This document shows positions 2,112 through 47,747 of a DNA stretch of 64,000 nucleotides, piece by piece (the stretch's first letter is position 1; each line of letters opens with the position of its first letter). The notes under the pieces are model-generated. The model did no database searches, was not told the origin of the DNA, and saw nothing but the letters and a program-made list of their open reading frames with translations. Origin of the DNA: a bacterium (lineage in GTDB: Bacteria > Patescibacteriota > Dojkabacteria > SC72 > WJKH01). The stretch lies in NCBI GenBank assembly GCA_029547225.1, contig JAKPPS010000028.1, positions 12,405 through 76,404 on the forward strand, written 5' to 3'. The translations under genes were made by a program, and so were the position numbers.

Positions 2112-5400
<3,289 letters not shown>

Positions 5401-33753: not shown

Positions 33754-33779
33754 TGATAAAATTACTCGTTAACAAATGT

Positions 33780-33853
<74 letters not shown>

Positions 33854-34007
33854 TATAATAATTAGATGGTGTCCCAGATTATAGTCAGTCGGATTATTGT
33901 CTTAATGGGCTTCCAAAGTGCATCTTAAGTGATAAAGTGATAAATAGTGAATCTGTTCTAGCTATATGTTCCGCTCATGAGTAGGTAGAATAATCTATAA
34001 TCAGTAT

Positions 34008-34397
34008 ATGAAAATGCAAAATCCCCTTTATAAACAGTTGATAATAGACCATTACAAAAATCCAAAAAATTTCGGCAATGTTGGTAAGTTAAAACTTCAT
34101 AACAAGGTTGAAAATGCTTCTTGTGGCGATGTTATAAATGTCGGGATGGAAATAGATGATAGTGGAGTTGTAAAATCAGTTGCTTTCGATGGTTCAGGTT
34201 GTGCTATAAGTATCGCATCAACGTCAATTTTACTTGATAGTCTAAAGGGAAAAACTCTTTCTGATATCAAAAAAATAAAATCGGGAGATGTACTAAAAAT
34301 GGTTGGTATGGAGGCTAGTAGTGGGAGAGTTAAGTGTGCTTTGCTAAGTTATGAAGGCATCAAAGAAATCGTGGATAAACTTGATAAGGCTCAATAA
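34008..34397 (+). CDS. Fe-S cluster scaffold / sulfur-transfer protein, SufU-IscU (NifU N-terminal) family
   Basis: LYKQLIIDHYKNPKNFG, the three cluster-ligand contexts ASCGD, GSGCAIS and VKCALL. Confidence 0.8.
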   Translation: MKMQNPLYKQLIIDHYKNPKNFGNVGKLKLHNKVENASCGDVINVGMEIDDSGVVKSVAFDGSGCAISIASTSILLDSLKGKTLSDIKKIKSGDVLKMVGMEASSGRVKCALLSYEGIKEIVDKLDKAQ

Positions 34398-34552
34398 AGC
34401 CGTTCAGAAGAATAAAACGTAAAAAATCCAATTTGATAATACTATTTCGTGTTCGAAAGCTTGTATCACTGGAAAAATTAGCTTGAATGTAGTATTATTT
34501 AGGCTAGATTGATATGAGTTTAAGGTATTCATCGCTCTTTATCAGTTTCTGT

Positions 34553-34626
34553 GCACCCGTAGCTTAATTGGATAGAGCATTGGTTTGCGGAACCAAAGGT
34601 TGACGGTTCGATTCCGTCCGGGTGCG
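34553..34626 (+). tRNA. tRNA-Arg(GCG), no encoded CCA
   Basis: Acceptor GCACCCG/CGGGTGC, anticodon stem TTGGT/ACCAA, loop TTGCGGA (positions 34-36 = GCG). Confidence 0.9.
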
Positions 34627-34819
34627 TTTTTTCACTTTATTTGCATTTATAAAATAACGGTTATAGACAAGACAGTAATTATTTATGGTATGCCACCAAC
34701 CAGATTGCGTTCCAATAATATCTTCCCATGACTACCCAAGCTTGTTTTGAATATTCTTGTTCGGTACGTTAAAATCTATTCTATCTGAACATATGATCCT
34801 AAATTAATTCTTTGCTGAC

Positions 34820-35062
34820 TTGATTATAAGTGTTATTGCAAAAACAAAATCTAAAAGTAATAAAGTAGTGCCAGTAAGCGATAGTGGTTATACCGGTAAG
34901 TCCTTTATAGTTTATACAAAAGAAGGTCCAATAGATAATAGAGCAAATATAGATATTATTAAGCAATTAGCAAAGTATTATGGTATTGCTAAAAGCAACA
35001 TAAAGATAAAATCAGGTCTTTCCTCGAAAAACAAACTTTTCATTATCGATATTGAAGAATAA
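34820..35062 (+). CDS. DUF167 / YggU-like small protein (TTG start)
   Basis: 80 aa. The pattern ...VYTKEGPIDNRANIDIIKQLAKYYGIAKSNIKIKSGLSSKNK matches the DUF167 core. Confidence 0.65.
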   Translation: MIISVIAKTKSKSNKVVPVSDSGYTGKSFIVYTKEGPIDNRANIDIIKQLAKYYGIAKSNIKIKSGLSSKNKLFIIDIEE

Positions 35063-35404
35063 TAGCCTCACTGATTCCTAATCGTGATGGTTTATTTCCT
35101 TATTCTTTTCAGAAGTAATACTTATGGAATTCGGTTTTATCGAATATTTTAATTTTGTTCTTGATAATCTTGTTGTTAATATTGGCTATTAGTTTTGGCT
35201 TAATGGAGAAACAAGTGTTTAGACTGATCTGCTGAACAATTTCGTAAATCCTAAAAATCTCTTACAAAAATATCTCATTTGAGTAAAAATAATGTCAAAT
35301 GAAATAATATCTAAGAAAATAATTCACAAGTAATTGCAGTAGAGCAACAAAACCAAGTGGGTAGAAAATTGAACGACTTGTCAACCCCTTGAATACTATT
35401 GACA

Positions 35405-35452
35405 CCACAAGATGTTGGGGGTACGCTATGAATAAGATACAAGCAGTTGTGG
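35405..35452 (+). promoter_or_regulatory. Two candidate NrdR boxes overlapping a TTGACA -35 element
   Basis: CCACAAGATGTTGGGG (35405-35420) and ATACAAGCAGTTGTGG (35437-35452). Both have the CAA-N4-TTG core. Their centres are 32 bp apart, and TTGACA lies at 35399-35404. Confidence 0.5.
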
Positions 35453-35487
35453 TAATGTAAAGATTATAAGATGTAAACTATTTTGCT

Positions 35488-35964
35488 ATGAGATGTCCAT
35501 ATTGTGGTTCGAAAGAGAGTAGAGTAGTAGATAAAAGAGATGGTGCAGATGACGGAAATACTCGCCGCAGACGTGAGTGTCTTAAATGTTATAAGCGTTT
35601 TACTACATACGAGCGAATAGAAAATGTCGAGCTAGATGTGCTAAAAAAGGATGGGACTATTGAGAAGTTCAATCGTGATAAGATTATTCGAAGTATAAAT
35701 AAGGCTATAAGTAAAAGGCCTATATCTGATGATCAGGTGTTAAAACTCGTAGAAGATATTGAAATGAAGCTGTTAAATCGTAAGGCTAGCGTGATTAAAT
35801 CATCAGAAATAGGAAAAATGATTTTAAATAGGCTTAAATGGCTCGATGGCGTTGCATATATGCGTTTCGCATCGGTATATAAAGATTTTGAGAATCTAGA
35901 CGATTTTCAGACTGAATTAATCTTATTAAGAGAGTATTATGCACAAGAACGAAAAAAGCATTAG
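35488..35964 (+). CDS. nrdR: Transcriptional repressor NrdR
   Basis: MRCPYCGS...CLKCYKRFTTYE zinc ribbon followed by an ATP-cone. Confidence 0.95.
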   Translation: MRCPYCGSKESRVVDKRDGADDGNTRRRRECLKCYKRFTTYERIENVELDVLKKDGTIEKFNRDKIIRSINKAISKRPISDDQVLKLVEDIEMKLLNRKASVIKSSEIGKMILNRLKWLDGVAYMRFASVYKDFENLDDFQTELILLREYYAQERKKH

Positions 35965-38275
35965 TAGTACGAAAACTACAAAAGTCAGTAATATTCACAA
36001 TATAACAATAAATGGAGAAATAGTTGATAAAAATTTGACTAATATCCCCAATCCTATACGTAAAAGAGACGGAAGAGTAGTCCCATTTGAGTTTACTAGG
36101 CTAGCCAATTCGATTTTCAAGTCAGCACAGATTATTGGTGGTGATGATAGGGAAAGAGCTAATGAGGTTGCAGTAGAGATAGTTAAGAAAATTCGTTCAA
36201 GGCACAGTGATACTGAGGAGATTATAGAAACTACAGAAATCTACGATATTGTCGTTGCGACTTTAGTTGAGATGGGTCATGGAAAAACAGCTAAATCATA
36301 CACTTTATATCGAGATCTTAACACACGAGTTCGTAATATTAAATCGCTTATCGATGCGGACGAGTTGATCAAAGGTTATATTGATAGTGTTGACTGGAGG
36401 GTTAACGAGAATGCCAATATGTCTTATTCTTGGCAGGGATTAAATAATCATATATCTTCTACGGTACAGTCAAATTACTGGCTTTGGAGTATTTATCCAA
36501 AAGAAGTATCAAATGCGCATGTTAATGCAGATTTACATATCCATGATCTCGGTATGCTTGCGATTTATTGCTGTGGATGGGATCTCCGACAGTTGTTGAT
36601 GAAAGGTTTTAGAGGTGTTCCTGGTAAAGTAACTTGTTCTCCAGCGAAGCATTTTAGGACTGCTTTAGGCCAAGTTGTTAATTACTTCTATACTTTGCAG
36701 CACGAGGCTGCAGGTGCTCAAGCTTTCTCAAGCTTTGATACTTATCTTGCACCATTTATCAGATATGACAAACTTGAATACAAGGAAGTTAAACAAGCAT
36801 TACAGGAGTTCGTATTCAATATGAATGTCCCGACTAGAGTTGGTTGTCAGACTCCATTTACAAATGTGACTTTAGATTTGAAACCATCAGGTCAGTTGGC
36901 ACAAGAATCAGTGATAATCGGTGGCAAGCCAATGCCAGAAAAATATGAAGATTTCCAGGAAGAAATAGATATGTTTAATCGTGCCTTTGCTGAAGTGTTG
37001 ATGGAAGGAGATGCTGAAGGTAGGGTTTTCACATTCCCAATTCCTACATACAATATTACATCTGATTTTGATTGGGATAATAAAGTGCTTGATCCGGTTT
37101 GGGAGATGACAGCAAAGTACGGAATTCCATATTTTGCAAATTTTGTTAACTCAGATATGAAACCAGATGATGTTAGATCAATGTGTTGTCGATTAAGAAT
37201 TGATAACCGTGAACTACGGAAAAGAGGTGGTGGTTTGTTTGGTTCCAACCCGATGACGGGAAGTGTTGGTGTAGTTACAATCAACATGCCACGGATCGGA
37301 TATGTTGCGAAAACAAAGGAAGAATACCTGAAACGACTTGGTGAGCTCATGGATATCTCTAGAAAGAGTCTTGATATTAAAAGACAAACAATAGAGAAAT
37401 ATACTGAAAGAGGGTTATATCCATACTCAAGATTTTATTTAGCAGAGGTTAAAGAGCGCTTCGGAGAATATTGGAAGAACCATTTCAATACTATTGGTAT
37501 TTGCGGAATGAATGAATCTGTACTTAATTTTCTCGGCAAGGATATTGTACATGATGAGGGTCGTGCATTTACTCTGGAAGTCTTAGATTTTATGCGAGCT
37601 AAACTGATGGAGTATCAGCAAGAATCAGGCCAGATATTCAACCTTGAGGCCTCACCTGCAGAAAGTGCGGCCTATCGATTTGCTAAAAGTGATCGCTCAA
37701 AATATCCGGATATTTATGTCGCAAACGATCCAAGATATAAAGCAAATGTGGTTGGCTCTTGTTGCGAAAATTGTATAGATAGTGATTGCAAAGATACTGG
37801 TTCGTCAGATCCAAGTTTTGCACCTTTCTACACTAATTCAAGCCAGTTACCAGTTGATAGTACCGATGATATTTTTGGTGCATTAGATCATCAAGATGAA
37901 ATTCAATGTAAATATACTGGTGGTACAGTTTTACATATTTTCTTGGGAGAAAGATTACCGTCAATCAAGAGTACAAAAGAGCTTGTTCGTAAAATTGCAC
38001 AAAATTACAAGATGCCATATTTCTCAATAACTCCAACATTTAGCATATGTCCAAAACATGGGTATCTAGCAGGTGAACACGAATTCTGTCCAAAATGTGA
38101 TGCTGAGATAGGGTATGAAGAAGGTAAAGATTCTTTAAAGAGTGCAGATACAAAAGTTGCGAATGTAGAAGAGGGCTCAAATACAGATAAAGATGATGCA
38201 AAACTTTCAGTGTCTGGTAAAAATGTAGAGCATTTAAGAAAACAGAATGATACGAGTGATAGAGTAGTAGGTTAA
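35939..38275 (+). CDS. nrdD: Anaerobic (class III) ribonucleoside-triphosphate reductase, large ORF ending inside the glycyl-radical motif
   Basis: N-terminal ATP-cone (RKRDGRVVPFEF). NrdD core blocks (HIHDLG, CCRLRIDNRELRKRGGGLFG, LEASPAES). First zinc-ribbon pair CPKC at 38087. The ORF ends ...SDRVVG-TAA. Confidence 0.9.
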   Translation: MHKNEKSISSTKTTKVSNIHNITINGEIVDKNLTNIPNPIRKRDGRVVPFEFTRLANSIFKSAQIIGGDDRERANEVAVEIVKKIRSRHSDTEEIIETTEIYDIVVATLVEMGHGKTAKSYTLYRDLNTRVRNIKSLIDADELIKGYIDSVDWRVNENANMSYSWQGLNNHISSTVQSNYWLWSIYPKEVSNAHVNADLHIHDLGMLAIYCCGWDLRQLLMKGFRGVPGKVTCSPAKHFRTALGQVVNYFYTLQHEAAGAQAFSSFDTYLAPFIRYDKLEYKEVKQALQEFVFNMNVPTRVGCQTPFTNVTLDLKPSGQLAQESVIIGGKPMPEKYEDFQEEIDMFNRAFAEVLMEGDAEGRVFTFPIPTYNITSDFDWDNKVLDPVWEMTAKYGIPYFANFVNSDMKPDDVRSMCCRLRIDNRELRKRGGGLFGSNPMTGSVGVVTINMPRIGYVAKTKEEYLKRLGELMDISRKSLDIKRQTIEKYTERGLYPYSRFYLAEVKERFGEYWKNHFNTIGICGMNESVLNFLGKDIVHDEGRAFTLEVLDFMRAKLMEYQQESGQIFNLEASPAESAAYRFAKSDRSKYPDIYVANDPRYKANVVGSCCENCIDSDCKDTGSSDPSFAPFYTNSSQLPVDSTDDIFGALDHQDEIQCKYTGGTVLHIFLGERLPSIKSTKELVRKIAQNYKMPYFSITPTFSICPKHGYLAGEHEFCPKCDAEIGYEEGKDSLKSADTKVANVEEGSNTDKDDAKLSVSGKNVEHLRKQNDTSDRVVG

Positions 38276-38359
38276 GCGTGTGGCAGTTACTGCCCCCACT
38301 GCCAGAGGTAGTAACAATATTGTTTAAACAGGTAGTAATAAATTATTATTAAAATCAAA

Positions 38360-38536
38360 ATGCAACAAGTTAAAGTTAGCCAAGTCAAAGACTTAAGTCA
38401 ACAAAGACAAAGATGTGAAGTATATTCAAGAGTTGTCGGCTATATCAGACCTGTCGCTCAGTGGAATAAGGGGAAAAAGGCTGAATGGAATTCCCGCAAA
38501 ACTTTTATTGAAGGATGTACGACTTGTTCTTGCTAA
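38360..38536 (+). CDS. 58-codon ORF encoding the NrdD glycyl-radical C-terminus (not in the supplied track, which omits ORFs under 60 aa)
   Basis: My translation: MQQVKVSQVKDLSQQRQRCEVYSRVVGYIRPVAQWNKGKKAEWNSRKTFIEGCTTCSC. It contains the RxxGY radical loop and the conserved WN.GK..E tail. It is in the same frame as nrdD. Confidence 0.6.
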   Translation: MQQVKVSQVKDLSQQRQRCEVYSRVVGYIRPVAQWNKGKKAEWNSRKTFIEGCTTCSC

Positions 38537-38608
38537 TACATATCTTGCAGGCTTGATTTCTTCATATGCTAATCTGAACTGATCAGATTGCAATAATATT
38601 TCTTATAA

Positions 38609-39394
38609 ATGAGACCTATATATTTTATCGAAAAATCTACTCTGTTGGATTATCCTGGCAAGATAGCCTCAATTATCTTCAATTGGGGCTGTAACTTTAG
38701 ATGTCCATTTTGTCATAATCCAGAGCTTGTAGTTGAGAGTCCGAGCTCAATGTTAATCAATAAAGATGGGGTGATTTCTTTTCTGAAAAAACGATTAGGG
38801 AAGATAGATGCTGTAGTTTTTACTGGTGGAGAACCTTTTGTAAATCCGGAAACAATAGATTTTGTTAAGGAGGTGAAGGATTTGGGTTTCCTCGTAAAGA
38901 TGGATACTAACGGTAGCTTTCCTGATAAATTGCAATATTTAATTGATAATCGTTTGGTTGATTATATTGCTATGGATATTAAGAACGATTTGACAACATA
39001 CTTAAGAACAATAGGACTTGAAAAACAGCACGAAGAATCTGTGAAACAACTAGGGGATATTGATATACACAATGATAATTCCGTGAAACAGAGCCCATTA
39101 AGCTTGTTAGAACGGGTAAAAGAAAGCATATCAATAATTATGGCAACTTCAGAAGCTAATTATCTGATAGATTATGAATTTCGTACGACTTTTGTACCTG
39201 GACTTCATTCAATTGATTCTGCTAAGGGTATTGGTGAATTGATACGTGGTGCAAAAATATTTTATGTGCAGAATTTCAGGCCTGGGAAAACATTGGATCC
39301 TTTATATTTGAAAAAGAATGGTTTTACTGATTCGGATCTGAAATCCTTTGCAGATACTATCTCAAAATATGTTGATGAGGTGGTTATTAGATAG
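38609..39394 (+). CDS. nrdG: Anaerobic RNR activating enzyme (radical SAM)
   Basis: CNFRCPFCHN (CxxxCxxC) near the N-terminus and a GGEP glycine-rich SAM motif. Sits directly downstream of nrdD. Confidence 0.9.
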   Translation: MRPIYFIEKSTLLDYPGKIASIIFNWGCNFRCPFCHNPELVVESPSSMLINKDGVISFLKKRLGKIDAVVFTGGEPFVNPETIDFVKEVKDLGFLVKMDTNGSFPDKLQYLIDNRLVDYIAMDIKNDLTTYLRTIGLEKQHEESVKQLGDIDIHNDNSVKQSPLSLLERVKESISIIMATSEANYLIDYEFRTTFVPGLHSIDSAKGIGELIRGAKIFYVQNFRPGKTLDPLYLKKNGFTDSDLKSFADTISKYVDEVVIR

Positions 39395-39504
39395 TAATTA
39401 TGGCTTACAATTTTTGTTTAAATCGGAAAGCGTCAAAAAAATTCTTTTTTGATTTCACCAGATGAATTGTATCTTTTTAATTCTCAGAAACTATATGAAT
39501 ATTT

Positions 39505-41241
39505 CTATTTTCTATTTTCCCAGCAAGCATCAATGAATCCCATGAAGATAGGGTGTGGAACAAGGAAACGAGATTTGAGTTCAGGGTGATATTGTGTGCC
39601 GATGAAAAATGGGTGGACTGATTTTGGAAGTTCTATCGCTTCTACAAGTGAACCGTCTGGAGAAGTACCTGCAATCAGTAAACCTTTATCTTCAAGTTGC
39701 TGTCGATAGAAGTTGTTGAATTCATATCTATGTCGATGCCTTTCTGATACATTAGGTAGAGTAAAAAGATAGTTTCCGAATTTCTTGTAACAATTTTCTA
39801 GCTGGGATTTAGGTTTAACAGCGCAAGGATAGGCACCAAGTCTGATAGTCCCTCCGAAGAGATTTATTGCCATAAGTGATTTTTGATATTCCATAAGGTG
39901 AATGACGTGATTCTTTGAGTCCGTGTCAACTTCTTCAGAATTTGCATCTTTGATACCGAGAACATTTCGAGCATACTCGATAACAGCCATTTGCATACCG
40001 AAACAGAGGCCAAGATAGGGGATTGTATTCTCTCTGGCAAGCTGTATAGCTTTGATCTTGCCTTCTGCACCTCGAGATCCCCAGCCCTGAGGAACAATAA
40101 TTCCGTCACTGTTGTTTATCAGTTCTTTTTGAGCCTTTTTGTCGTCTTCAAATCCATCTGAAACGTACCATTTTATATCTGCTTCTTTATTTTGTGCCCA
40201 GCAGGCATGCTTTATTGCCTCAATAACTGAAACGTAAGCATCTTTTAGATCAAAATCACCGCTTTTATAATACTTACCTATAATACCGATACGAACTTTC
40301 TTGGAGCGATTTGTCGCGCTACTTAGCATTTTAATTTTCTTTTTCCAAGCGGGGTAAAGTGAAGTCTCTTTGTATTTTAAGTTTAATTTATTACAAATTT
40401 TGTCAACGATTTTTTCATCTTGGAAATTAATAGGTATCTTGTAAACATTGTTTACATCGGGAGCTGCTATGATATGCTCTTTTGGTATGTTGCAGAAATA
40501 GCTAATCTTTTCCCTTCTTATGTCATCTGGTTTTTTGACTGAACGAGCTAAAATAAAGTCTGGAGATATCCCTTGTTTATTTAGAAATCTTACTGATATT
40601 TGAGTCGGTTTTGTTTTCATCTCACCAAGTTTTGAAGGGATAGGTAAGTAAGCCACATGGATATGGATGACATCGTTAGGTCTGTGAAGTTTCATTACTC
40701 GGTTAGCTTCTAGGAATAATTCTGACTCATATTCACCGGCTGTACCACCGATTTCGACAGTTACTACTTGTGCGCCTGTTTTCTCGGCACAGTTTTCGAT
40801 CTGAGAAATAATCTGTTGTGGTACATGAGTATATACTTGGACACATTTCCCTTTATATTTCATCTCGCGTTCATTCTTAAGTACTTGAGAATAAATTGAA
40901 CCGGTAGTCATGTAATTTGTTTTGGAGAAAGTTTCATCAAGGAATCGTTCGTAATGTCCCATGTCCATGTCGGTTTCTAGGCCATCTTCGAGTACGAAGG
41001 TTTCGCCGTGCTCAAGTGGATTCATTGTGCCCGCATCAACATTTACATACGGATCTGCTTTCATCATACTTACTTTAATACCATGAGATTTAAGCAAGAA
41101 TCCGATCGAAGATGCGGCGATACCTTTACCTACGCCTGATATTACTCCTCCGGAGATAAAAATAAATTTTGTAGACGCGTTGGCTTTTTTGCCATTGTTT
41201 TTATCTACTTTAGGGGAATTTTGTTTGTTTTGTGTGTGCAT
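39505..41241 (-). CDS. pyrG: CTP synthase
   Basis: Synthetase domain FISGGVISGVGKGI. Glutamine amidotransferase domain GLCFGMQ and HRHRYEFN. Confidence 0.95.
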   Translation of the reverse strand: MHTQNKQNSPKVDKNNGKKANASTKFIFISGGVISGVGKGIAASSIGFLLKSHGIKVSMMKADPYVNVDAGTMNPLEHGETFVLEDGLETDMDMGHYERFLDETFSKTNYMTTGSIYSQVLKNEREMKYKGKCVQVYTHVPQQIISQIENCAEKTGAQVVTVEIGGTAGEYESELFLEANRVMKLHRPNDVIHIHVAYLPIPSKLGEMKTKPTQISVRFLNKQGISPDFILARSVKKPDDIRREKISYFCNIPKEHIIAAPDVNNVYKIPINFQDEKIVDKICNKLNLKYKETSLYPAWKKKIKMLSSATNRSKKVRIGIIGKYYKSGDFDLKDAYVSVIEAIKHACWAQNKEADIKWYVSDGFEDDKKAQKELINNSDGIIVPQGWGSRGAEGKIKAIQLARENTIPYLGLCFGMQMAVIEYARNVLGIKDANSEEVDTDSKNHVIHLMEYQKSLMAINLFGGTIRLGAYPCAVKPKSQLENCYKKFGNYLFTLPNVSERHRHRYEFNNFYRQQLEDKGLLIAGTSPDGSLVEAIELPKSVHPFFIGTQYHPELKSRFLVPHPIFMGFIDACWENRK

Positions 41242-41605
41242 AAATCAGTATATCAGAGAAATTTTTATTGTTAAGATGATAGCTAAATTTTTCTGAAAAA
41301 GTGAAAAAGCTTGTATCACATTGACGATCCTTATAGTAATGGTATGATAGAGTGCACTCCAATGTGGTTGGATATATAAATTGTATTATTATTTTTTTTA
41401 GTATTGCGCTATTTGAAATATTCCTGAATATATTTTTGAAAGTGCATTTACGAATTTTTCAAAAAAATAGGAACTTATTTTTTGAGAAAAATCTTTTTTT
41501 TATATTTCTATGATATTCGTAATAATTAATTTGGATGAATAATTTTCTGTAGTGTAGGCAAAAAAGAGTAGAATATGGTAAAATATTAGCGTTTAGTTAT
41601 TTAAT

Positions 41606-41679
41606 GCACCCGTAGCTCAATTGGTTAGAGCATTGGTCTTCGGAACCAAAGGTTGTAGGTTCGAATCCTATCGGGTGCG
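41606..41679 (+). tRNA. tRNA-Arg(UCG), no encoded CCA
   Basis: Acceptor GCACCCG/CGGGTGC, anticodon loop CTTCGGA, T-arm GTAGG-TTCGAAT-CCTAT. Confidence 0.9.
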
Positions 41680-42032
41680 TTTTGTTTTTTTTGTATTATG
41701 TCATTGCAGATCAGATATCTGCGAATTATTTCCATCCATTGTTTGCAGTCGGTTCACGATACTTAATTCTTTTCAAGTAAATTGCAATCATCATTTGGTT
41801 TCTTAATTCGTGCTTTTGTTTCACACTGCGTATTTCTTTACTCTGAAATTATGCCATATTTACGGTCGTATTTATTTGTACACGCCAAATGGGTAATATT
41901 TTTGTATTATCTGTTTCACGGAAATTCTATACAAAAATGGTAAAAATTATATCAATTTGGACTGAAAAATTTGGTAATTAATTTTATTTCATTGGGATTG
42001 AATATTTTGAATTAATAAAATAGAATGTAGTT

Positions 42033-44876
42033 ATGCGAATAAGTATAGAGAGGAGTTTACTAGAATTATTTCCGGATGCAGTGGAGTATATTGTTGTGCT
42101 CAAAGGCTGTAGTAATATGACAGCTAAAAGCCGTGAAATAGTTGAATATATGGAATCGGCGCAAAAGAAAATGCGTTCTGGAGAAATGGTTTTCGATTTC
42201 GAAGATGATCCTCGATTTAAAAACTGGGATATTGTGCAAAAAAAAATAGCCCAAAATATCTTGAATAATTCAAATGCGTCAAATACTTCTATTTCAGACG
42301 ATCCTTATAAAGCGAGTTCACAAAATATTGATGGAGCAGGTGATAAAAGTATGCAACATAAAGCTGGAATATCTTCTCATGTCTCGTTAGTAAATAAAAT
42401 ATTGGCTGGTAAGGATCTTGCAAATATTAATCCAATTGTGAATTACTATAATATTTTTTCTGCTTATTACGGTCTGCCAATCGGTGCTGAAGATTTAGCA
42501 AAAGTATATGGCGACTTTGTTTTTAAAGTTTCTGACGGAGGTGAACCTTTTGTATCTATTTCCAGTAAAGATATTGAATCGATAAACCGGGGTGATGTTA
42601 TATTAACCGATGAGCTGGGCCCAACTTGTAAGGGGTGGAATCAGAAACAATCAGAGAGAGACAAAGTCGGGAAATATAGTACAGAAATTATGTTTTTCTT
42701 TGATCATATTGACGGCGATAATGGTAGTCTTGGTAATCTATATGAAAAGCCCATAGATTTTATTACTTCTGAAAACGCTTCGCTTGGAGAGGGTACTAAA
42801 ATAGATTTTCAACAATTGCTTCAATATTTTGTTTCAAAATTGGAATATTATTTTGGAGGAACATACGAGATATTTAGGCTAGACGGGAATAATATGATTG
42901 TTGATTTTGATGCGAATAATCTTAATGGTTCACAACTTAGAAATCTTACTTTACAAGAAAAACACCAGTACTTACAAAGCATCGTTGATGAAATATATAC
43001 AAAAGGAAATAAAGGTATAACAAAGAGAAAGGCGGAGAATCTCGGCTTGAAAAACACTTCTAGTCCAATTAATGTTATTGATAAGAAACTATTAGAATTA
43101 TGCCAGTCTAATGGTGTCTTGTTAGATCAGGATAGTTTTATGCTTCAATCTAAACATAACATCGAGAATGTTGAGTATTCTACTGCAATAGCAATGCGAG
43201 TCGCATCACAGATTGGTAAGCAACCTAAAGAAATTGCATTGCAAATCAAAGAGATAATATTATCCTGTAGTGAAATCGGTTCTTGTGAAGTTGCTGAAAA
43301 TGGCTTTATAAACCTTGTCATGTCAAATGAATTTTACCTTTCAAATCTGAAGAATTTTTATGAAAATTTTGATGATATTACGGAAAGTAATGCCGGTGAG
43401 AATAAAACAATATTAATCGAGATGGTTTCTCCAAATCCTAACAAAGCTTTACATTTAGGGCATATCCTAAATCTTTTTCTAGGCAAATCTCTCTTACGGA
43501 TTTTCAATAAAGTCGGTTTTAAAGCGGTTGAAGATTGTTTAGTAAATGATAAAGGTTTGCCAATTGCAAAAACTATATGGGCTATCAAAAAATATGGAAT
43601 TGATAGTAGTCCTGAGAAAGAGGGATTAAAGGAGGATCATTGGGTAGATAAATATTACGTCATGGGCGCCAATGATTTTAAAAATAGCTTATCAGTGCGT
43701 AAAGAGGTTAGGGCAATATTACGCTCTATAGAAAATGAAGATCCGGAGATTTTAGAAATCTGGAAGAGGGTTATATCGCATAGTGTAGAAGGTCAGAGAG
43801 CCACTCTAAAGCGTTTGGGTGAAGATTTCGGATATTTATGGTATGAACATGAAATCTACAAAATTGGGCGTAATATGATCGAGAGCCATATTGATGGGAA
43901 AAATGTTATTAAATTACCAGACGGAGTCGTTGTTGGAATCCTTGAGAAAACATATGGTGTTCCAGATGTTGTGCTTGTAAAATCCGATGGAACATCTTTG
44001 TATCATACTCAAGATCTTGCTCTTACAATGAAAAAGATTGAAAAATTTAATCCATGGAAAGCGATATGGGTTGTGGGGAATGATCAGATTGTACATTTTC
44101 AGAGACTATTTTCGCTCATAGATATGCTATCTGTTATGCCGATAGATAATCTGTATCATTATGCTTATGGATATGTTTTTGATAAAGATGGTAAAAGATT
44201 TTCTTCAAGATCTGGTGACGCATTAAGTGCTGACGAACTAATTGATTTGATACTTGATAGTGCACGAAAAGTGATTGAATCAAGAAAAGAATTTGCGAAG
44301 AAATCTCAAGAGGATTTATCAGAATCTAATGATGAGGATATTGTGAATAATTTAGTCGGTGACGAAAAAGAAAATATCTCTGAGAAGGTTGGATTGTCAG
44401 CTTTGAAATACGCCTTTTTAAGCACCGATCCATATAAAGATATCAGATTTGATATTGAAAAATCGTTGTCATTTAGCGGTAAAAGCGGTCCATATATCTT
44501 GTATGCATTTGTTAGGGCTAAAAGTATTTTAGAGAAAGCAGATCTAAATAAGGACAATGAAGAGGGTGATTTATTAAATAAAGTAGGGGATAATAATTCT
44601 GCTGTATCACTTGATGGATATAGTAAAAATCTTATTATTAAGCTTTTTGATTATCCTGATACAATTATTGCAAGTGCGAATAACTATATGCCTAGTATTA
44701 TTGCTGAATATCTTTATGACTTGTCTAAGGATTTTAGCTCCTTTTATGAAAATACCGATATCCTTGGAGATTCTACACTGGCAAAATATTATAAGTTGAT
44801 AATTATTTCGCTGTTTGAAAGAGTTATTTCTGATGGATTAGAGCTTCTGGGAATTGAGACTTTAGACCGCATGTAG
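42033..44876 (+). CDS. argS: Arginyl-tRNA synthetase with a ~340-aa N-terminal extension resembling a B3/B4-domain protein
   Basis: ArgRS part: N-domain (...VAENGFINLVMS), HIGH-type PNPNKALHLGH, DALR end (AEYLYDLSKDFSSFYEN), terminal ...LDRM. Extension part: ELFPD..., INPIVNYYNIFSAYYGLPIGAEDL, GGEPF, CKGWNQKQSERDKV. Confidence 0.9.
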   Translation: MRISIERSLLELFPDAVEYIVVLKGCSNMTAKSREIVEYMESAQKKMRSGEMVFDFEDDPRFKNWDIVQKKIAQNILNNSNASNTSISDDPYKASSQNIDGAGDKSMQHKAGISSHVSLVNKILAGKDLANINPIVNYYNIFSAYYGLPIGAEDLAKVYGDFVFKVSDGGEPFVSISSKDIESINRGDVILTDELGPTCKGWNQKQSERDKVGKYSTEIMFFFDHIDGDNGSLGNLYEKPIDFITSENASLGEGTKIDFQQLLQYFVSKLEYYFGGTYEIFRLDGNNMIVDFDANNLNGSQLRNLTLQEKHQYLQSIVDEIYTKGNKGITKRKAENLGLKNTSSPINVIDKKLLELCQSNGVLLDQDSFMLQSKHNIENVEYSTAIAMRVASQIGKQPKEIALQIKEIILSCSEIGSCEVAENGFINLVMSNEFYLSNLKNFYENFDDITESNAGENKTILIEMVSPNPNKALHLGHILNLFLGKSLLRIFNKVGFKAVEDCLVNDKGLPIAKTIWAIKKYGIDSSPEKEGLKEDHWVDKYYVMGANDFKNSLSVRKEVRAILRSIENEDPEILEIWKRVISHSVEGQRATLKRLGEDFGYLWYEHEIYKIGRNMIESHIDGKNVIKLPDGVVVGILEKTYGVPDVVLVKSDGTSLYHTQDLALTMKKIEKFNPWKAIWVVGNDQIVHFQRLFSLIDMLSVMPIDNLYHYAYGYVFDKDGKRFSSRSGDALSADELIDLILDSARKVIESRKEFAKKSQEDLSESNDEDIVNNLVGDEKENISEKVGLSALKYAFLSTDPYKDIRFDIEKSLSFSGKSGPYILYAFVRAKSILEKADLNKDNEEGDLLNKVGDNNSAVSLDGYSKNLIIKLFDYPDTIIASANNYMPSIIAEYLYDLSKDFSSFYENTDILGDSTLAKYYKLIIISLFERVISDGLELLGIETLDRM

Positions 44877-44882
44877 AAAGAT

Positions 44883-44956
44883 GCACCCGTAGCTTAATTG
44901 GCTTGAGCATTGGTTTCCGGAACCAAAGATTGTAGGTTCGAATCCTATCGGGTGCG
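44883..44956 (+). tRNA. tRNA-Arg(CCG), no encoded CCA
   Basis: Acceptor GCACCCG/CGGGTGC, anticodon loop TTCCGGA. Starts 6 nt after the argS stop. Confidence 0.9.
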
Positions 44957-45204
44957 TTTAGCATGTAAAATTGAAGGTGTAAAGGAATTGTTCACTGACA
45001 CTAAGAAATTGTTAGTAATCCAATGTCGGTATTGTTAGTCAATTGTATTGCTAATTTGTTGATTTTTCTTTTGTCGGGTAGAGGCTGATATGTTTTCTTG
45101 TATTAATAACGGAAGTTCGAATTATGATGCTGGTGGAAACTATTACATTGATATGGTAACATTACTTAGTGTGTAAATTTCCGGATCTTATATTTTTTAG
45201 TTTA

Positions 45205-45281
45205 CGGGGTGTAGTTCAGTTGGCTAGAATGCTTCGTTCGGGACGAAGTGGTCGCACGTTCAAGTCGTGTCACCCCGACCA
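45205..45281 (+). tRNA. tRNA-Pro(CGG), CCA encoded
   Basis: Acceptor CGGGGTG/CACCCCG, anticodon stem CTTCG/CGAAG, loop TTCGGGA. The 3' 12 nt overlap the recombinase stop region on the opposite strand. Confidence 0.9.
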
Positions 45282-46757
45282 GTCTTGTCGATCGTTAAAA
45301 TTCAGGAAGTTATCAAACGGACTTTTGCCTATATAGCTTAATTTTTCGTTGGTTATAGTCAAGTTCGAGAATACAAAATTGATAATTTCTCTTTTTCCTT
45401 CATCATCTGCTCGTTTGAAAAGCCGTGACGCATTTTGTGTCAGTTCGAGAATTCTTAATCCAGTTTCAAAGTATATGTGATTGGCTTGTTTGTGTTTTTC
45501 CATGTCACGAATAGTTTGCTTTTCTGCTTTTACCTCTTTTTCAAACTTTTCAAGATATGTTTCTTTTGTGATGAGTCCGTCTAGCCTGTCATCATACAAT
45601 TGGTCTTTTCGTGATTGCGTTTTAGTTAGTTTTGCTTGTAGTGTTGACATTGCTTGATTATGAAAATCAGCTTCGCTTTTATGAGCATCTTTTAGTGTTT
45701 GCTTTAATACTTCAAATGTTTCTTTTGGAATTTTCATTGAACTTAAAACGTTTTCGATTTCTGTATTTAGTTTTTCTTCTCTCCAATATTGGTGTTTATG
45801 TCTCATTTTATACTCAGTACAGCGATAATATACATATCTGCCTTTTTGAATTTCTGTTGTATATGATGAGCCACAAACACCGCATTTAATAAGTCCACTA
45901 AACAGAAAACTGTTTTTGCGTTTATTCGGCTTCTTTCTGCTTCGTAAAATATCTTGCACTTTGTAGTATAGTTCTTCTGAAATTATCGGCTCGTGAATAC
46001 CTTTGTATTCTTTACTTTTCCATCTCATTATGCCAATATAAAAGGGATTTTGTAAGGTTACTCGTATCTTTTCTTTGCAAAGTGGTACTTCGGGTTTGCT
46101 TTTAGCATGTAGTCCTTCTTCAAGTAGTAGTTCACCAATTGTTTGAAAGCTGTATTCGCCAGTAGCATATAATTCAAACATTTTCTTAACAAATGGTGCT
46201 TTTGAAATATCAATATCGCAAGTATGTGTATCTTTATTGTTTTTATATCCAAGCGGTGCAGAAGCAGGCCAACCGCCTTGAGCCACTTTTTCCTCAAGTC
46301 CTTTTTTGACATCATCTCTCAAGTTATTGATATATCCTTTTGCCATTACTGCCTGTAAATCAAAGTTCATTAGTTCGTTTGACCTTGAGTCGTTGTTTAG
46401 AATAATTCCTTCTTTTACAAAATGGAATTCTTTTCCTGCTTTGATTAAATCATACACTTTAACAATGTCAGCAAAGTTACGAGCCACACGATCTATTTTC
46501 TCGATAACTGCAATTTGAATGTTGTCATGCTCTGTAAGGTAGGTAATCATTTCACTAAAAGCCTTTCTTCCTTCCTTTTTAGCTGATTCTGCAACCTGCC
46601 AATGCTTGATTATTTGTAAGTTATTCTTTTGAGCATAATTGATTATGTTTTTAAGTTGAGCATCAAGTGAATATCCTTCTTCCTGTTCTCGTGAAGATAC
46701 TCGACAATATGCAATAACCGCTCTTGGTTCGTCAGGTATAAAGTCATATTTGCTCAT
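45270..46757 (-). CDS. Large serine recombinase (integrase type)
   Basis: Catalytic N-domain AVIAYCRVSSREQ. Recombinase domain. Zinc ribbon CGVCGSSYTTEIQKGRYVYYRC. Coiled-coil C-terminal region. 495 aa. Confidence 0.9.
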   Translation of the reverse strand: MSKYDFIPDEPRAVIAYCRVSSREQEEGYSLDAQLKNIINYAQKNNLQIIKHWQVAESAKKEGRKAFSEMITYLTEHDNIQIAVIEKIDRVARNFADIVKVYDLIKAGKEFHFVKEGIILNNDSRSNELMNFDLQAVMAKGYINNLRDDVKKGLEEKVAQGGWPASAPLGYKNNKDTHTCDIDISKAPFVKKMFELYATGEYSFQTIGELLLEEGLHAKSKPEVPLCKEKIRVTLQNPFYIGIMRWKSKEYKGIHEPIISEELYYKVQDILRSRKKPNKRKNSFLFSGLIKCGVCGSSYTTEIQKGRYVYYRCTEYKMRHKHQYWREEKLNTEIENVLSSMKIPKETFEVLKQTLKDAHKSEADFHNQAMSTLQAKLTKTQSRKDQLYDDRLDGLITKETYLEKFEKEVKAEKQTIRDMEKHKQANHIYFETGLRILELTQNASRLFKRADDEGKREIINFVFSNLTITNEKLSYIGKSPFDNFLNFNDRQDWSG

Positions 46758-46794
46758 AAGTTTTAATGCTCAATTTAAATATCGAGTAAACTCG

Positions 46795-46919
46795 ATGTTA
46801 ACTGTGACGCTCGGAAATCTTAAATAAATTTAGATTTCTCTCGCTATCCTCGTTAATAACAAAAAAGGGCGACTCGTTGGACACAACTCCATTTGCATGA
46901 AATTGTACGAATCGCCCTT
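46795..46919. repeat. Inverted repeat A (left arm) bracketing the replication module
   Basis: Read on the minus strand: a large-loop hairpin (AAGGGCGATTCG...CGAGTCGCCCTT), then a T run, then a ~70-nt core (GTTATTAACGAGGATAGCGAGAGAAATCTAAATTTATTTAAGATTTCCGAGCGTCACAGTTAACAT) homologous to 47875-47940. Confidence 0.8.
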
Positions 46920-46965
46920 TATACTATCAAAATACCCTTTAATAGCGTTGGGTTCATGCAAATAA

Positions 46966-47199
46966 TTAAGTTGTGTCCATTTCAATATTATCATCTCGGT
47001 TAATTTTTGTTAAATCGAAGTTTTGTACCATTTCTTGAATTTTCAATTTGTTATCAATCTTTTCTAAGGTTTCAAAGAATTTTATAAAGTTAAATAGTGC
47101 TTCATATGCCTGTTTATCTGTTAGTTCAATACCGTAATCATGCAGGTATGCTTTCTGGAACTGCTTTATATTTTTCTTTATTGGGTCAGTTACCTGCAT
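46966..47199 (-). CDS. Hypothetical small acidic protein, apparently co-transcribed with the Rep-O-like gene
   Basis: 77-aa ORF starting 5 nt after the upstream stop and followed by the hairpin plus T run of repeat A. No motif recognised. Confidence 0.45.
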   Translation of the reverse strand: MQVTDPIKKNIKQFQKAYLHDYGIELTDKQAYEALFNFIKFFETLEKIDNKLKIQEMVQNFDLTKINRDDNIEMDTT

Positions 47200-47204
47200 G
47201 TATT

Positions 47205-47747
47205 TTAAGAAATGTATTTATAAATGTTTTTAATTGTATTTCGGCCCTCGGTTTGACTTGGATTAGTGAGGGTTTTCTTGATGTCGTTGTTAGTGATTTG
47301 CTCCATATCAGTAGAGTGTTTTACTAAGTTTCGTGTTAGTAATTTACTAAACTTTTTGTTCGATTTTTGAAGTGATTCACTAACCACCTTTTTAGTTATC
47401 CACATTTGGTTAGTTTTTCGTTTCCAAATAATAAGTTCTTTTAAAACAAGCTGATTTAGTTCATGAGAAATGTCAGATGAGTAAATTCCCACTAATGTAA
47501 AATCAGACGGTTTTAGACGTGCTACAGCTCGATTACAACCAATTGAAAAGCGAACAATGAGGAGTAGGATTTTTATCTGTCTTTTTGATAGTGATTTGTT
47601 GAAAATGATTGACTCAAAAAGTAGATTTGAGAATTTGAAAAAGCCTTTAGATTCCAGATCTTTAATATTAAGTCGTGTAGAACGCTCTACAAGTTCAGGA
47701 AAGTTTTGTTTTAAGTATTCTCCTACTGTTTTCATCAATAATTTCAA
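47205..47747 (-). CDS. Replication-initiator-like protein (phage lambda O N-terminal type winged helix); TTG start
   Basis: GFFKFSNLLFESII...LSKRQIKILLLIVRFSIGCNRAVARLKPSDFTLVGIYSSDISHELNQLVLKELII follows the Phage_rep_O N-terminal pattern. Confidence 0.6.
   Translation of the reverse strand: MKLLMKTVGEYLKQNFPELVERSTRLNIKDLESKGFFKFSNLLFESIIFNKSLSKRQIKILLLIVRFSIGCNRAVARLKPSDFTLVGIYSSDISHELNQLVLKELIIWKRKTNQMWITKKVVSESLQKSNKKFSKLLTRNLVKHSTDMEQITNNDIKKTLTNPSQTEGRNTIKNIYKYIS

Follow-up and report, generated by a model that had tools for sequence, protein, structure and literature searches.

Canavanine is charged by arginyl-tRNA synthetase (ArgRS), an enzyme for which no editing domain is on record (PMC10018355). 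The latter point agrees with what the first-pass annotation of the present locus had stated. What, then, is the role of the long extra module found at the N-terminus of an ArgRS from a Dojkabacteria genome? The gene in question lies in a 64,000-nucleotide stretch of contig JAKPPS010000028.1 (hereafter the window, in which all positions are given) and consists of one ATG-initiated open reading frame (ORF) of 947 codons plus stop, at 42033..44876 on the + strand. We present evidence that the extra module belongs with CtdA, a free-standing protein that hydrolyses canavanyl-tRNA(Arg) and spares Arg-tRNA(Arg) (PMC10018355; PMC12449066), and we argue that it probably serves to edit tRNA(Arg) mischarged by the very synthetase to which it is tethered.

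The initial description of the gene as a single 947-codon frame was in line with the ORF list, and all the motifs that it quoted were present in the translation: ELFPD (aa 11-15), NINPIVNYYNIFSAYYGLPIGAEDL, GGEPF, WNQKQSER, PNPNKALHLGH and the terminal LDRM, along with the low-complexity insert NNSNASNTSISDD. Public databases hold a 100%-identical protein (P0001) under the name 'arginine--tRNA ligase [Candidatus Dojkabacteria bacterium]'. The C-terminal part had been taken for a normal ArgRS and, indeed, aa 356-947 are predicted to form a complete one. With the TIGR00456 argS equivalog profile, for which the cutoff is 261.65 bits, the protein scored 353.1, and the match took in aa 365-947 and profile positions 20-569 of 569. 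Three Pfam domains were found, all above their gathering thresholds, namely Arg_tRNA_synt_N at 357-429 (E 1.7e-10), tRNA-synt_1d at 452-807 (E 1.7e-37) and DALR_1 at 822-947 (E 1.9e-24). This part could be aligned end to end with a solved ArgRS (6ao8), and Foldseek gave it template modelling (TM) scores of 0.78-0.89 to solved ArgRS structures, 6ao8 reaching 0.89. The same program found no PDB entry covering both halves of the protein, the highest query-normalised TM score being 0.55. The catalytic motifs were located, with HIGH present as HLGH (aa 474-477), followed by FSSRSG (R726, G728). Residues E463, N468, H474, G476, H477, Y657, D661, R726 and G728 were invariant in 10 close fusions, and N468, H474, G476, H477, Y657, R726 and G728 remained so when plain ArgRS sequences were added. 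From the structural literature on yeast ArgRS, we take E463/N468, within the ExxxPNxxKxxHxGH block, and Y657/D661, within the YxxxD block, to be involved in arginine binding.

Turning to the N-terminal part, Pfam B3_4 (PF03483) matched aa 115-228 with 55.5 bits (gathering score 29.3, E 7e-15). A word-index search with aa 1-340 returned no homologues, probably with low-complexity words dominating the candidates; exhaustive and profile searches found them. When aa 1-340 were compared by phmmer with PDB sequences, the hits were CtdA 9f7e (E 1e-11) and CtdA 9mkl (E 5e-11), with PheRS-beta at 0.24. A profile built from 11 fused modules brought the two CtdA values to 3e-32 and 6e-32 and PheRS-beta to 0.004. 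The AlphaFold2 model of aa 1-300, built from the 11-module sequence set, had a predicted local distance difference test (pLDDT) score of 81 and a predicted TM (pTM) score of 0.81, the less confident stretches being aa 84-110, 230-233 and 244-252. The full-length model reached a pTM of 0.71, a value that says nothing on the distance between the two active sites. Foldseek placed 9f7e and 9mkl at the top of the PDB matches to this model (E 6e-14, TM 0.81-0.83 normalised to CtdA, 284-291 aligned columns). PheRS-beta chains came next at 1e-6, with partial overlap and TM <0.2 on the target. The match ran over the whole CtdA chain and included the helical insertion specific to that family.

These results refine the earlier view of the module, which was described as a B3/B4 domain of the PheRS-beta editing type, COG3382-like. 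A B3/4 domain of the free-standing type fused to ArgRS is what we found, and both the Pfam match and the similarity in profile and fold speak for it; the nearest family is CtdA, however, and not PheRS-beta proper. The module had also been thought to end at about aa 235. In the model and in the Foldseek alignment the B3/4 fold goes on to about aa 295, taking in a C-terminal helix and strands at 253-291. As modelled, residues 1 to about 295 thus appear to be a complete CtdA-type fold. Identity as a PheRS-beta editing domain was considered separately and rejected: the protein has no B1, B2 or B5-B8 domains, and pheT_bact gave 12.7 bits against a cutoff of 402.

The insert at aa 84-110 is Asn/Ser-rich and predicted to be disordered. 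It is confined to the protein of this lineage and absent in the nine related fusions P0002-P0010. One of these, P0002 (67% identical), carries another insertion, rich in Cys/Ser/Asn, further downstream and past the B3/4 core. Surface loops of the module seem tolerant of such insertions.

The active site of CtdA has been dissected by others, which allowed us to look at individual residues. Y104, N105, E118 and E191 are needed for activity of the Pseudomonas canavaninivorans enzyme (PMC12268091), and the pocket of the Salmonella enterica enzyme is lined by N105, G116, E118, C166, Q173 and I189 (PMC12449066). In HMMER alignments, CtdA Y104/N105/S108/G116/E118 correspond to Y139/N140/S143/G151/E153 of the window protein, and C166/Q173/I189/E191 correspond to C199/Q206/F222/D224. 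The mapped pocket residues are identical except for two conservative changes, I189 to F222 and E191 to D224, and the Cys typical of CtdA-1 is found in the module (C199). We then counted conservation over 41-45 fusion representatives. N140, D193 and R209 were conserved in 100%, G151 in 98% and E153 in 96%. Position 199 was C in about three quarters of the representatives and T, S or V in the others, position 206 was Q or E, and position 224 was D or E. Part of this variation has counterparts in CtdA itself: C166 tunes canavanine-versus-arginine specificity while C166S and C166A variants stay active, and the C. perfringens protein has Glu at the position equivalent to 206, taken as catalytically tolerated (PMC12449066). 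Between orthologues, identity was 33-74% in the CtdA core versus 40-78% in the ArgRS body. Such a conservation pattern is the one that would be expected of an active hydrolytic site under purifying selection. The E153 and R209 pair is near-universal in the ArgRS fusions and found in characterised CtdAs, and it is replaced in related modules fused to lysyl- and tyrosyl-tRNA synthetases (LysRS and TyrRS, see below), which may be taken as a hint on specificity.

The fusion is a real, inherited architecture: 11 contigs assembled independently encode the identical protein, and the same arrangement recurs in about 40 diverged clusters. The 11 contigs come from independent ENA and JGI assemblies and show the same neighbours around the gene. 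A word-index search with the full protein brought nine more proteins of 846-1124 aa, at 35-67% identity and 100% coverage, all with B3_4 and the three ArgRS domains. An exhaustive HMMER search of 1.84 billion cluster representatives with aa 1-340 gave 761 matches, 145 of them at E <=1e-10, and the CtdA-like domain (approximately residues 75-200) was found together with the ArgRS body in 44 of the 165 proteins collected. Among metagenome-assembled genomes of GTDB species, the fused gene was present in those labelled Dojkabacteria, Wirthbacteria, Collierbacteria, Shapirobacteria, 'Patescibacteria group' and Saccharibacteria, the last by label. Free-standing relatives of the module also occur in genomes of the candidate phyla radiation (CPR) and of DPANN. 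Neighbour-joining trees of the B3/4 cores and of the ArgRS bodies both recovered a Dojkabacteria-type clade. Their deep branches were star-like, with plain ArgRS interleaved, and we make no claim as to the number of fusion events.

The CtdA fold and the Add1 domain of ArgRS are joined by a linker of about 60 residues, made of a helix (307-322) and then a coil with the basic stretch KGNKGITKRKAENLGL (aa 324-339). This basic motif is conserved in the Dojkabacteria-type subclade. Over 41 fusions the linkers had a median length of 59 aa and contained 20% K+R versus 13% for the whole protein; the linker was net positive in 30 of the 41, though most of these proteins are net acidic. These features fit a flexible, RNA-friendly tether. 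As regards an internal restart near codon 340, no Met was conserved in the linker or in the ArgRS N-terminus across the orthologues.

Unfused and duplicated states were also encountered. At locus L021 (3380-6069), a free CtdA-like ORF of 258 aa with the full signature ends at 4156, and argS starts 5 nt later, with a canonical N-terminus (MKIQLQHLF...) and no linker. At locus L022 (2109-7692), from Jacksonbacteria, the order is an argininosuccinate lyase-like gene, presumably argH as judged by our reading of its sequence, then a free CtdA-like gene, one 567-aa gene of no known identity, and argS. Conversely, P0005 (1124 aa) carries two tandem CtdA-like modules before the ArgRS, both with the N/G/E/D/Q/R signature. 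Neighbourhood, operon and fusion states taken together are classic evidence of functional coupling between ArgRS and the CtdA-like family.

What could this coupling be for? Since characterised CtdA members hydrolyse canavanyl-tRNA(Arg), the family assignment gives the ArgRS fusion a direct biochemical rationale. We propose that the ArgRS body, that is, the C-terminal ~590 residues with the Add1, Rossmann and DALR domains, would bind and charge tRNA(Arg), and would be imperfect at excluding close arginine analogues, canavanine being the documented case. The tethered CtdA-like pocket within the N-terminal 295 residues would then hydrolyse the resulting mischarged tRNA(Arg), in other words perform post-transfer editing. 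In this scheme the Y139/N140 pair would place a water molecule at the ester bond, and E153 and D224, the acidic floor of the pocket, would hold the guanidino-type basic side chain. The K/R-rich tether of ~60 residues would keep the editing site at a very high local concentration beside the sole enzyme that makes its substrate, and one polypeptide would do the job that free-standing CtdA does in trans. The hydrolytic activity and the nature of the non-cognate amino acid, be it canavanine or some other analogue of arginine, are inferred; the 3' end may pass between the two sites with the tRNA still bound (true cis editing) or reach the pocket after release and rebinding. What we observed, and what the proposal builds on, are the architecture of the gene, the assignment of the module to the CtdA family and its fold, the conservation of catalytic and pocket residues over about 40 diverged fusions, and the unfused context states. 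The most likely function of the tethered module is post-transfer editing of tRNA(Arg) to which an arginine analogue has been attached, and we hold this to be probable.

Several observations weigh against this proposal. The core of the window protein is 28-33% identical to the solved CtdAs, compared with 41-47% for other fusions, and it combines a Phe at the I189 position with the disordered insert. Canavanine is a legume metabolite, and these CPR bacteria may not be exposed to it. No guanidine riboswitch or canavanine-catabolism gene was found nearby in the window, a linkage that is frequent in CtdA but not obligatory and that was likewise missing from the 790-nt upstream region. Finally, a sublineage of relics exists (L002, L003, L006 and L010, 784-830 aa; for example, L003:5809-8211 and L010:5827-8193) in which the module is degenerate, and whose bearing is discussed below.

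One alternative accepts an active deacylase and gives it a physiological substrate other than canavanyl-tRNA(Arg), which partly overlaps with the proposal above. Candidates could be tRNA(Arg) carrying homoarginine, citrulline, ornithine or another analogue or pathway metabolite, or even cognate Arg-tRNA(Arg), the module acting as a brake on the charged pool. The authors of the CtdA work raise further substrates for organisms without canavanine exposure, and they report that CtdA weakly hydrolyses Arg-tRNA(Arg) (PMC12449066). The C/T/S/V variation at position 199 affects the site whose CtdA equivalent tunes arginine versus canavanine, and the free homologue at L022 adjoins argH. The LysRS- and TyrRS-fused modules, with their changed pocket residues, point to an evolvable specificity. 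Yet the residues known to define the CtdA-1 canavanine pocket are all in the window protein, canavanine is the sole analogue documented both as charged by ArgRS and as cleared by the CtdA family, and it would be costly for a tethered domain to hydrolyse the cognate product to no purpose. On balance we find this alternative rather unlikely.

The LysRS and TyrRS fusions deserve a description of their own. A CtdA-like module was found N-terminal on class II LysRS (P0066 and P0120, TIGR00499 above cutoff), one member of a LysRS-fusion cluster being annotated in Candidatus Babeliales, on class I LysRS (P0094, TIGR00467 above cutoff) and on TyrRS (P0143 and P0073, TIGR00234 above cutoff). It was also found joined to GNAT acetyltransferases and to an amidase; P0091, P0145 and P0093 are further members of this set of fusions. 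In the LysRS and TyrRS fusions, it is the E153- and R209-equivalent positions that are altered. To our knowledge, no editing domain of the CtdA-like B3/4 kind is known in LysRS or TyrRS. This distribution suggests a portable editing cassette with evolvable specificity.

The main rival to the editing proposal sees the module as a non-catalytic appendage, for tRNA binding or for structure, which would act with the basic linker to raise the affinity for tRNA(Arg) or the stability of the enzyme. It would account for the relics, which have lost the catalytic signature by multiple replacements (Y139 to F, S143 to V/L, G151 to L/I/V/D, E153 to G/A, C199 to H, D224 to L/V/R, and in L010 also N140 to R) and whose helical insert is shortened to 8-37 residues, while the domain and the basic linker motif KGxKGhxKRR...S(L/M)G(L/F) are kept. 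In these proteins the appendage may have been retained while catalysis was lost, and a second, non-catalytic role may exist. The K/R-rich linker of most fusions would suit such a role as well, and CPR synthetases do gain RNA-binding domains, as in B2-TyrRS (PMC5370408). In opposition to this, residues that serve only catalysis or aminoacyl binding are kept in the window protein, in 13 of 17 genome loci and in ~95-100% of the 41-45 representatives, which a mere RNA-binding scaffold would hardly explain. Within one clade, moreover, the degenerate forms seem to have arisen by secondary loss. A silent appendage is thus improbable for the module as a whole, and post-transfer editing remains the reading that we favour. 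As for the adjacent ctdA-like and argS genes having been joined by an error of sequencing, assembly or gene calling, an unfused pair is indeed known at L021, but we give this explanation practically no credence, as the ORF recurs intact on the 11 independent contigs without split or frameshift, ~40 orthologues with identity down to 25-35% keep one continuous frame with a homologous linker, and L021, having no linker and its own stop and start codons, is a different state and not a frameshifted copy.

The features of the locus are collected in the table.

Features of the fused gene and of the two flanking tRNA-Arg genes (window positions).
Feature	Position	Strand	Basis
Whole fusion gene: CtdA-like deacylase module, basic linker and complete ArgRS (predicted)	42033..44876	+	ORF list, Pfam, NCBIfam
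aa 1-295, module with a predicted full-length CtdA-family B3/4 fold, putatively an aminoacyl-tRNA(Arg) deacylase	42033..42917	+	Pfam, phmmer, profile, AlphaFold2, Foldseek
aa 84-110, low-complexity insert in the CtdA-specific helical region	42282..42362	+	pLDDT <50 in both models
Pocket-forming segment (putative): Y139, N140, S143, G151, E153, D193, C199, W202, Q206, R209, F222, D224	42447..42704	+	Mapping onto CtdA mutagenesis
aa 296-355, linker	42918..43097	+	Secondary structure, pLDDT
aa 356-430, ArgRS N-terminal (Add1) domain	43098..43322	+	Pfam Arg_tRNA_synt_N
aa 431-807, ArgRS class I catalytic domain	43323..44453	+	Pfam tRNA-synt_1d, Foldseek
aa 808-947, DALR anticodon-binding domain	44454..44873	+	Pfam DALR_1
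tRNA-Arg(UCG), 352 nt before the start codon of the fusion	41605..41680	+	ARAGORN, Rfam
tRNA-Arg(CCG), begins at the 6th base past the stop of the fusion	44882..44957	+	ARAGORN, Rfam

The two tRNA-Arg genes said at the outset to bracket the fusion were located at the same positions by ARAGORN and Rfam. A tRNA-Arg(UCG) gene lies on the same strand directly before the fused gene in 8 of 11 closer loci (L002-L007, L010 and L011), at 24-390 nt. At L004, L005 and L007, the fused argS is immediately preceded by a tight cluster, tRNA-Arg(UCU), tRNA-Arg(GCG) and then tRNA-Arg(UCG). The window differs in that tRNA-Arg(UCU) and tRNA-Arg(GCG) are found 7-8 kb upstream, the intervening genes being nrdR, nrdD, a radical-SAM activase-like gene and pyrG. 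The window thus has four tRNA-Arg genes (UCU, GCG, UCG and CCG) within 11 kb (33779-44957), on the argS strand. Alignment showed tRNA-Arg(CCG) and the upstream tRNA-Arg(UCG) to be near-identical paralogues; in none of the GTDB-derived loci L001-L022 did a tRNA-Arg(CCG) follow argS. The bracketing is part ancestral synteny and part recent duplication, because only the upstream tRNA-Arg(UCG) is kept in relatives and the CCG gene is a near-identical copy. No sign was found that it is mechanistically required. The 3' CCA is not encoded in the tRNA-Arg genes of the window.

The window has a GC content of ~33% and an rRNA operon at its start, and the genes neighbouring the fusion are nrdR/nrdD/nrdG-like genes, pyrG, tRNAs and a recombinase. 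Neither a second ArgRS gene nor a second B3/4 gene was found within the 64 kb. Promoter- and terminator-like sites at 41200-45400 showed no excess over shuffled expectation. With Rfam, no guanidine riboswitch, T-box or other regulatory RNA was detected in the window, nor at 41240-42100 at a relaxed threshold, and no canavanine-catabolism gene was seen near the fusion gene.

Downstream, a tRNA-Pro(CGG) gene (45205-45281) has its 3' end overlapped by a large serine recombinase gene (45270-46757, - strand) whose product has Resolvase, Recombinase and Zn-ribbon domains. Next comes a gene resembling that of phage replication protein O (47205-47747, - strand), and the GC skew changes sign from ~46 kb. 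The region 45205-47747 is probably a mobile element or prophage integrated at tRNA-Pro; the same recombinase/phage-side neighbours were found on the other contigs bearing the fusion gene. At the other end of the window, the 23S rRNA match (2113-5400) spans 3288 nt versus a model of 2925 positions, which implies ~360 nt of insertion(s) in the gene. Insertions in CPR rRNA genes have been reported.

How does the fusion compare with known systems? With the two solved CtdAs, 9f7e from P. canavaninivorans and 9mkl from S. enterica, both of the CtdA-1 clade, the module shares the whole-chain fold, the helical insert and the catalytic and pocket residues. The tRNA(Arg) partner would also be the same, as the fusion implies for the window module. 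CtdA is free-standing, whereas the module is joined to ArgRS through the basic linker and has a disordered insert of 27 aa. As published, the CtdA class comprises single-domain proteins of ~180-260 aa that act in trans, and the module, being the first 295 of the 947 residues of an ArgRS, is a fused homologue outside it. The two also differ by the Asp and Phe found in place of E191 and I189, and by the low core identity given above. Published CtdA surveys do not report occurrence in CPR, to which the window module belongs. The B3/B4 domain of PheRS-beta shares with it the B3/4 superfold, a conserved Asn near the scissile ester (PMC12268091) and a cis position on a synthetase. That domain, however, lies within a class II heterotetramer, with B1, B2 and B5-B8 around it, and acts on Tyr/m-Tyr, while the window module sits N-terminal on a class I monomeric ArgRS, has insertions of the CtdA type and not of the PheRS type, and is expected to act on a basic analogue. 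Canonical ArgRS (N. gonorrhoeae 6ao8, E. coli 4oby/5yym) has the same Add1, Rossmann and DALR domains, HIGH motif and arginine-binding residues and is devoid of an editing domain (PMC10018355), in contrast with the 355 extra N-terminal residues of the window protein. A human ArgRS-canavanine complex, 4q2x, was among the structures listed by Foldseek.

Cis/trans editing pairs of the AlaRS/AlaX type have been characterised for decades. The logic of a hydrolytic module existing both in trans and in cis is the same in AlaRS/AlaX, ProRS INS/YbaK-ProXp and ThrRS N2/ThrRS-ed (listed in PMC10018355). For ArgRS editing, the only factor known is CtdA, which acts in trans and dates from 2023, and the window module is carried on a long flexible N-terminal linker and not inserted near the active site. 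A further parallel is the B2(OB)-TyrRS of WS6/Dojkabacteria and other CPR (PMC5370408), in which a module derived from PheRS-beta stands at the N-terminus of a synthetase in the same lineage. There, the module is the RNA-binding B2 domain, of oligonucleotide/oligosaccharide-binding (OB) fold, and not a hydrolytic B3/4, and the partner synthetase differs.

In the CtdA and ArgRS literature that could be searched, we found no description of an ArgRS-CtdA fusion or of any fusion of ArgRS to an editing domain, 'B3/4' being unusable as a search term. In the published CtdA phylogeny, sequences outside the range of 180-260 residues were discarded, and the fusions are missing from it because of this filter. 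The AARS Online paper gives fused isoforms for other synthetases and none for ArgRS. Precomputed Pfam annotations of public proteins, named simply 'arginine--tRNA ligase', do show the architecture; it is unrecognised rather than unseen. With the present protein, an editing domain would for the first time be described as part of an arginyl-tRNA synthetase; the novelty lies in a known trans-editing factor being found in cis, on a synthetase that was believed to have no such domain.

A broader reading can be put forward, to which we give somewhat less than an even chance. A working editing site on ArgRS-held tRNA(Arg) would amount to a double-sieve ArgRS across much of the CPR, and a portable CtdA-type cassette would have been attached independently, in reduced-genome symbionts, to synthetases of no fewer than four families (ArgRS, class I LysRS, class II LysRS and TyrRS), with its pocket retuned in each. 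If this is true, undiscovered non-cognate substrates, not necessarily canavanine, would be expected to matter in these organisms.

For the CtdA family, tRNA recognition and the wider biological role are still open questions (PMC12449066). The fusion and the operon and neighbourhood states bring independent evidence, of the Rosetta-stone type, that links the B3/4 family to ArgRS and tRNA(Arg) beyond legume-associated bacteria. A natural CtdA-ArgRS fusion also offers a ready system for studying how CtdA engages tRNA and how editing in cis compares with editing in trans. Length filters in family surveys have hidden such architectures, and among the fusions the ArgRS case is the one most worth pursuing, because its expected substrate is known. 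Together with the LysRS and TyrRS fusions and the relics, it suggests that ultra-small symbionts organise the quality control of translation in a different way, possibly directed at amino-acid analogues yet to be discovered.

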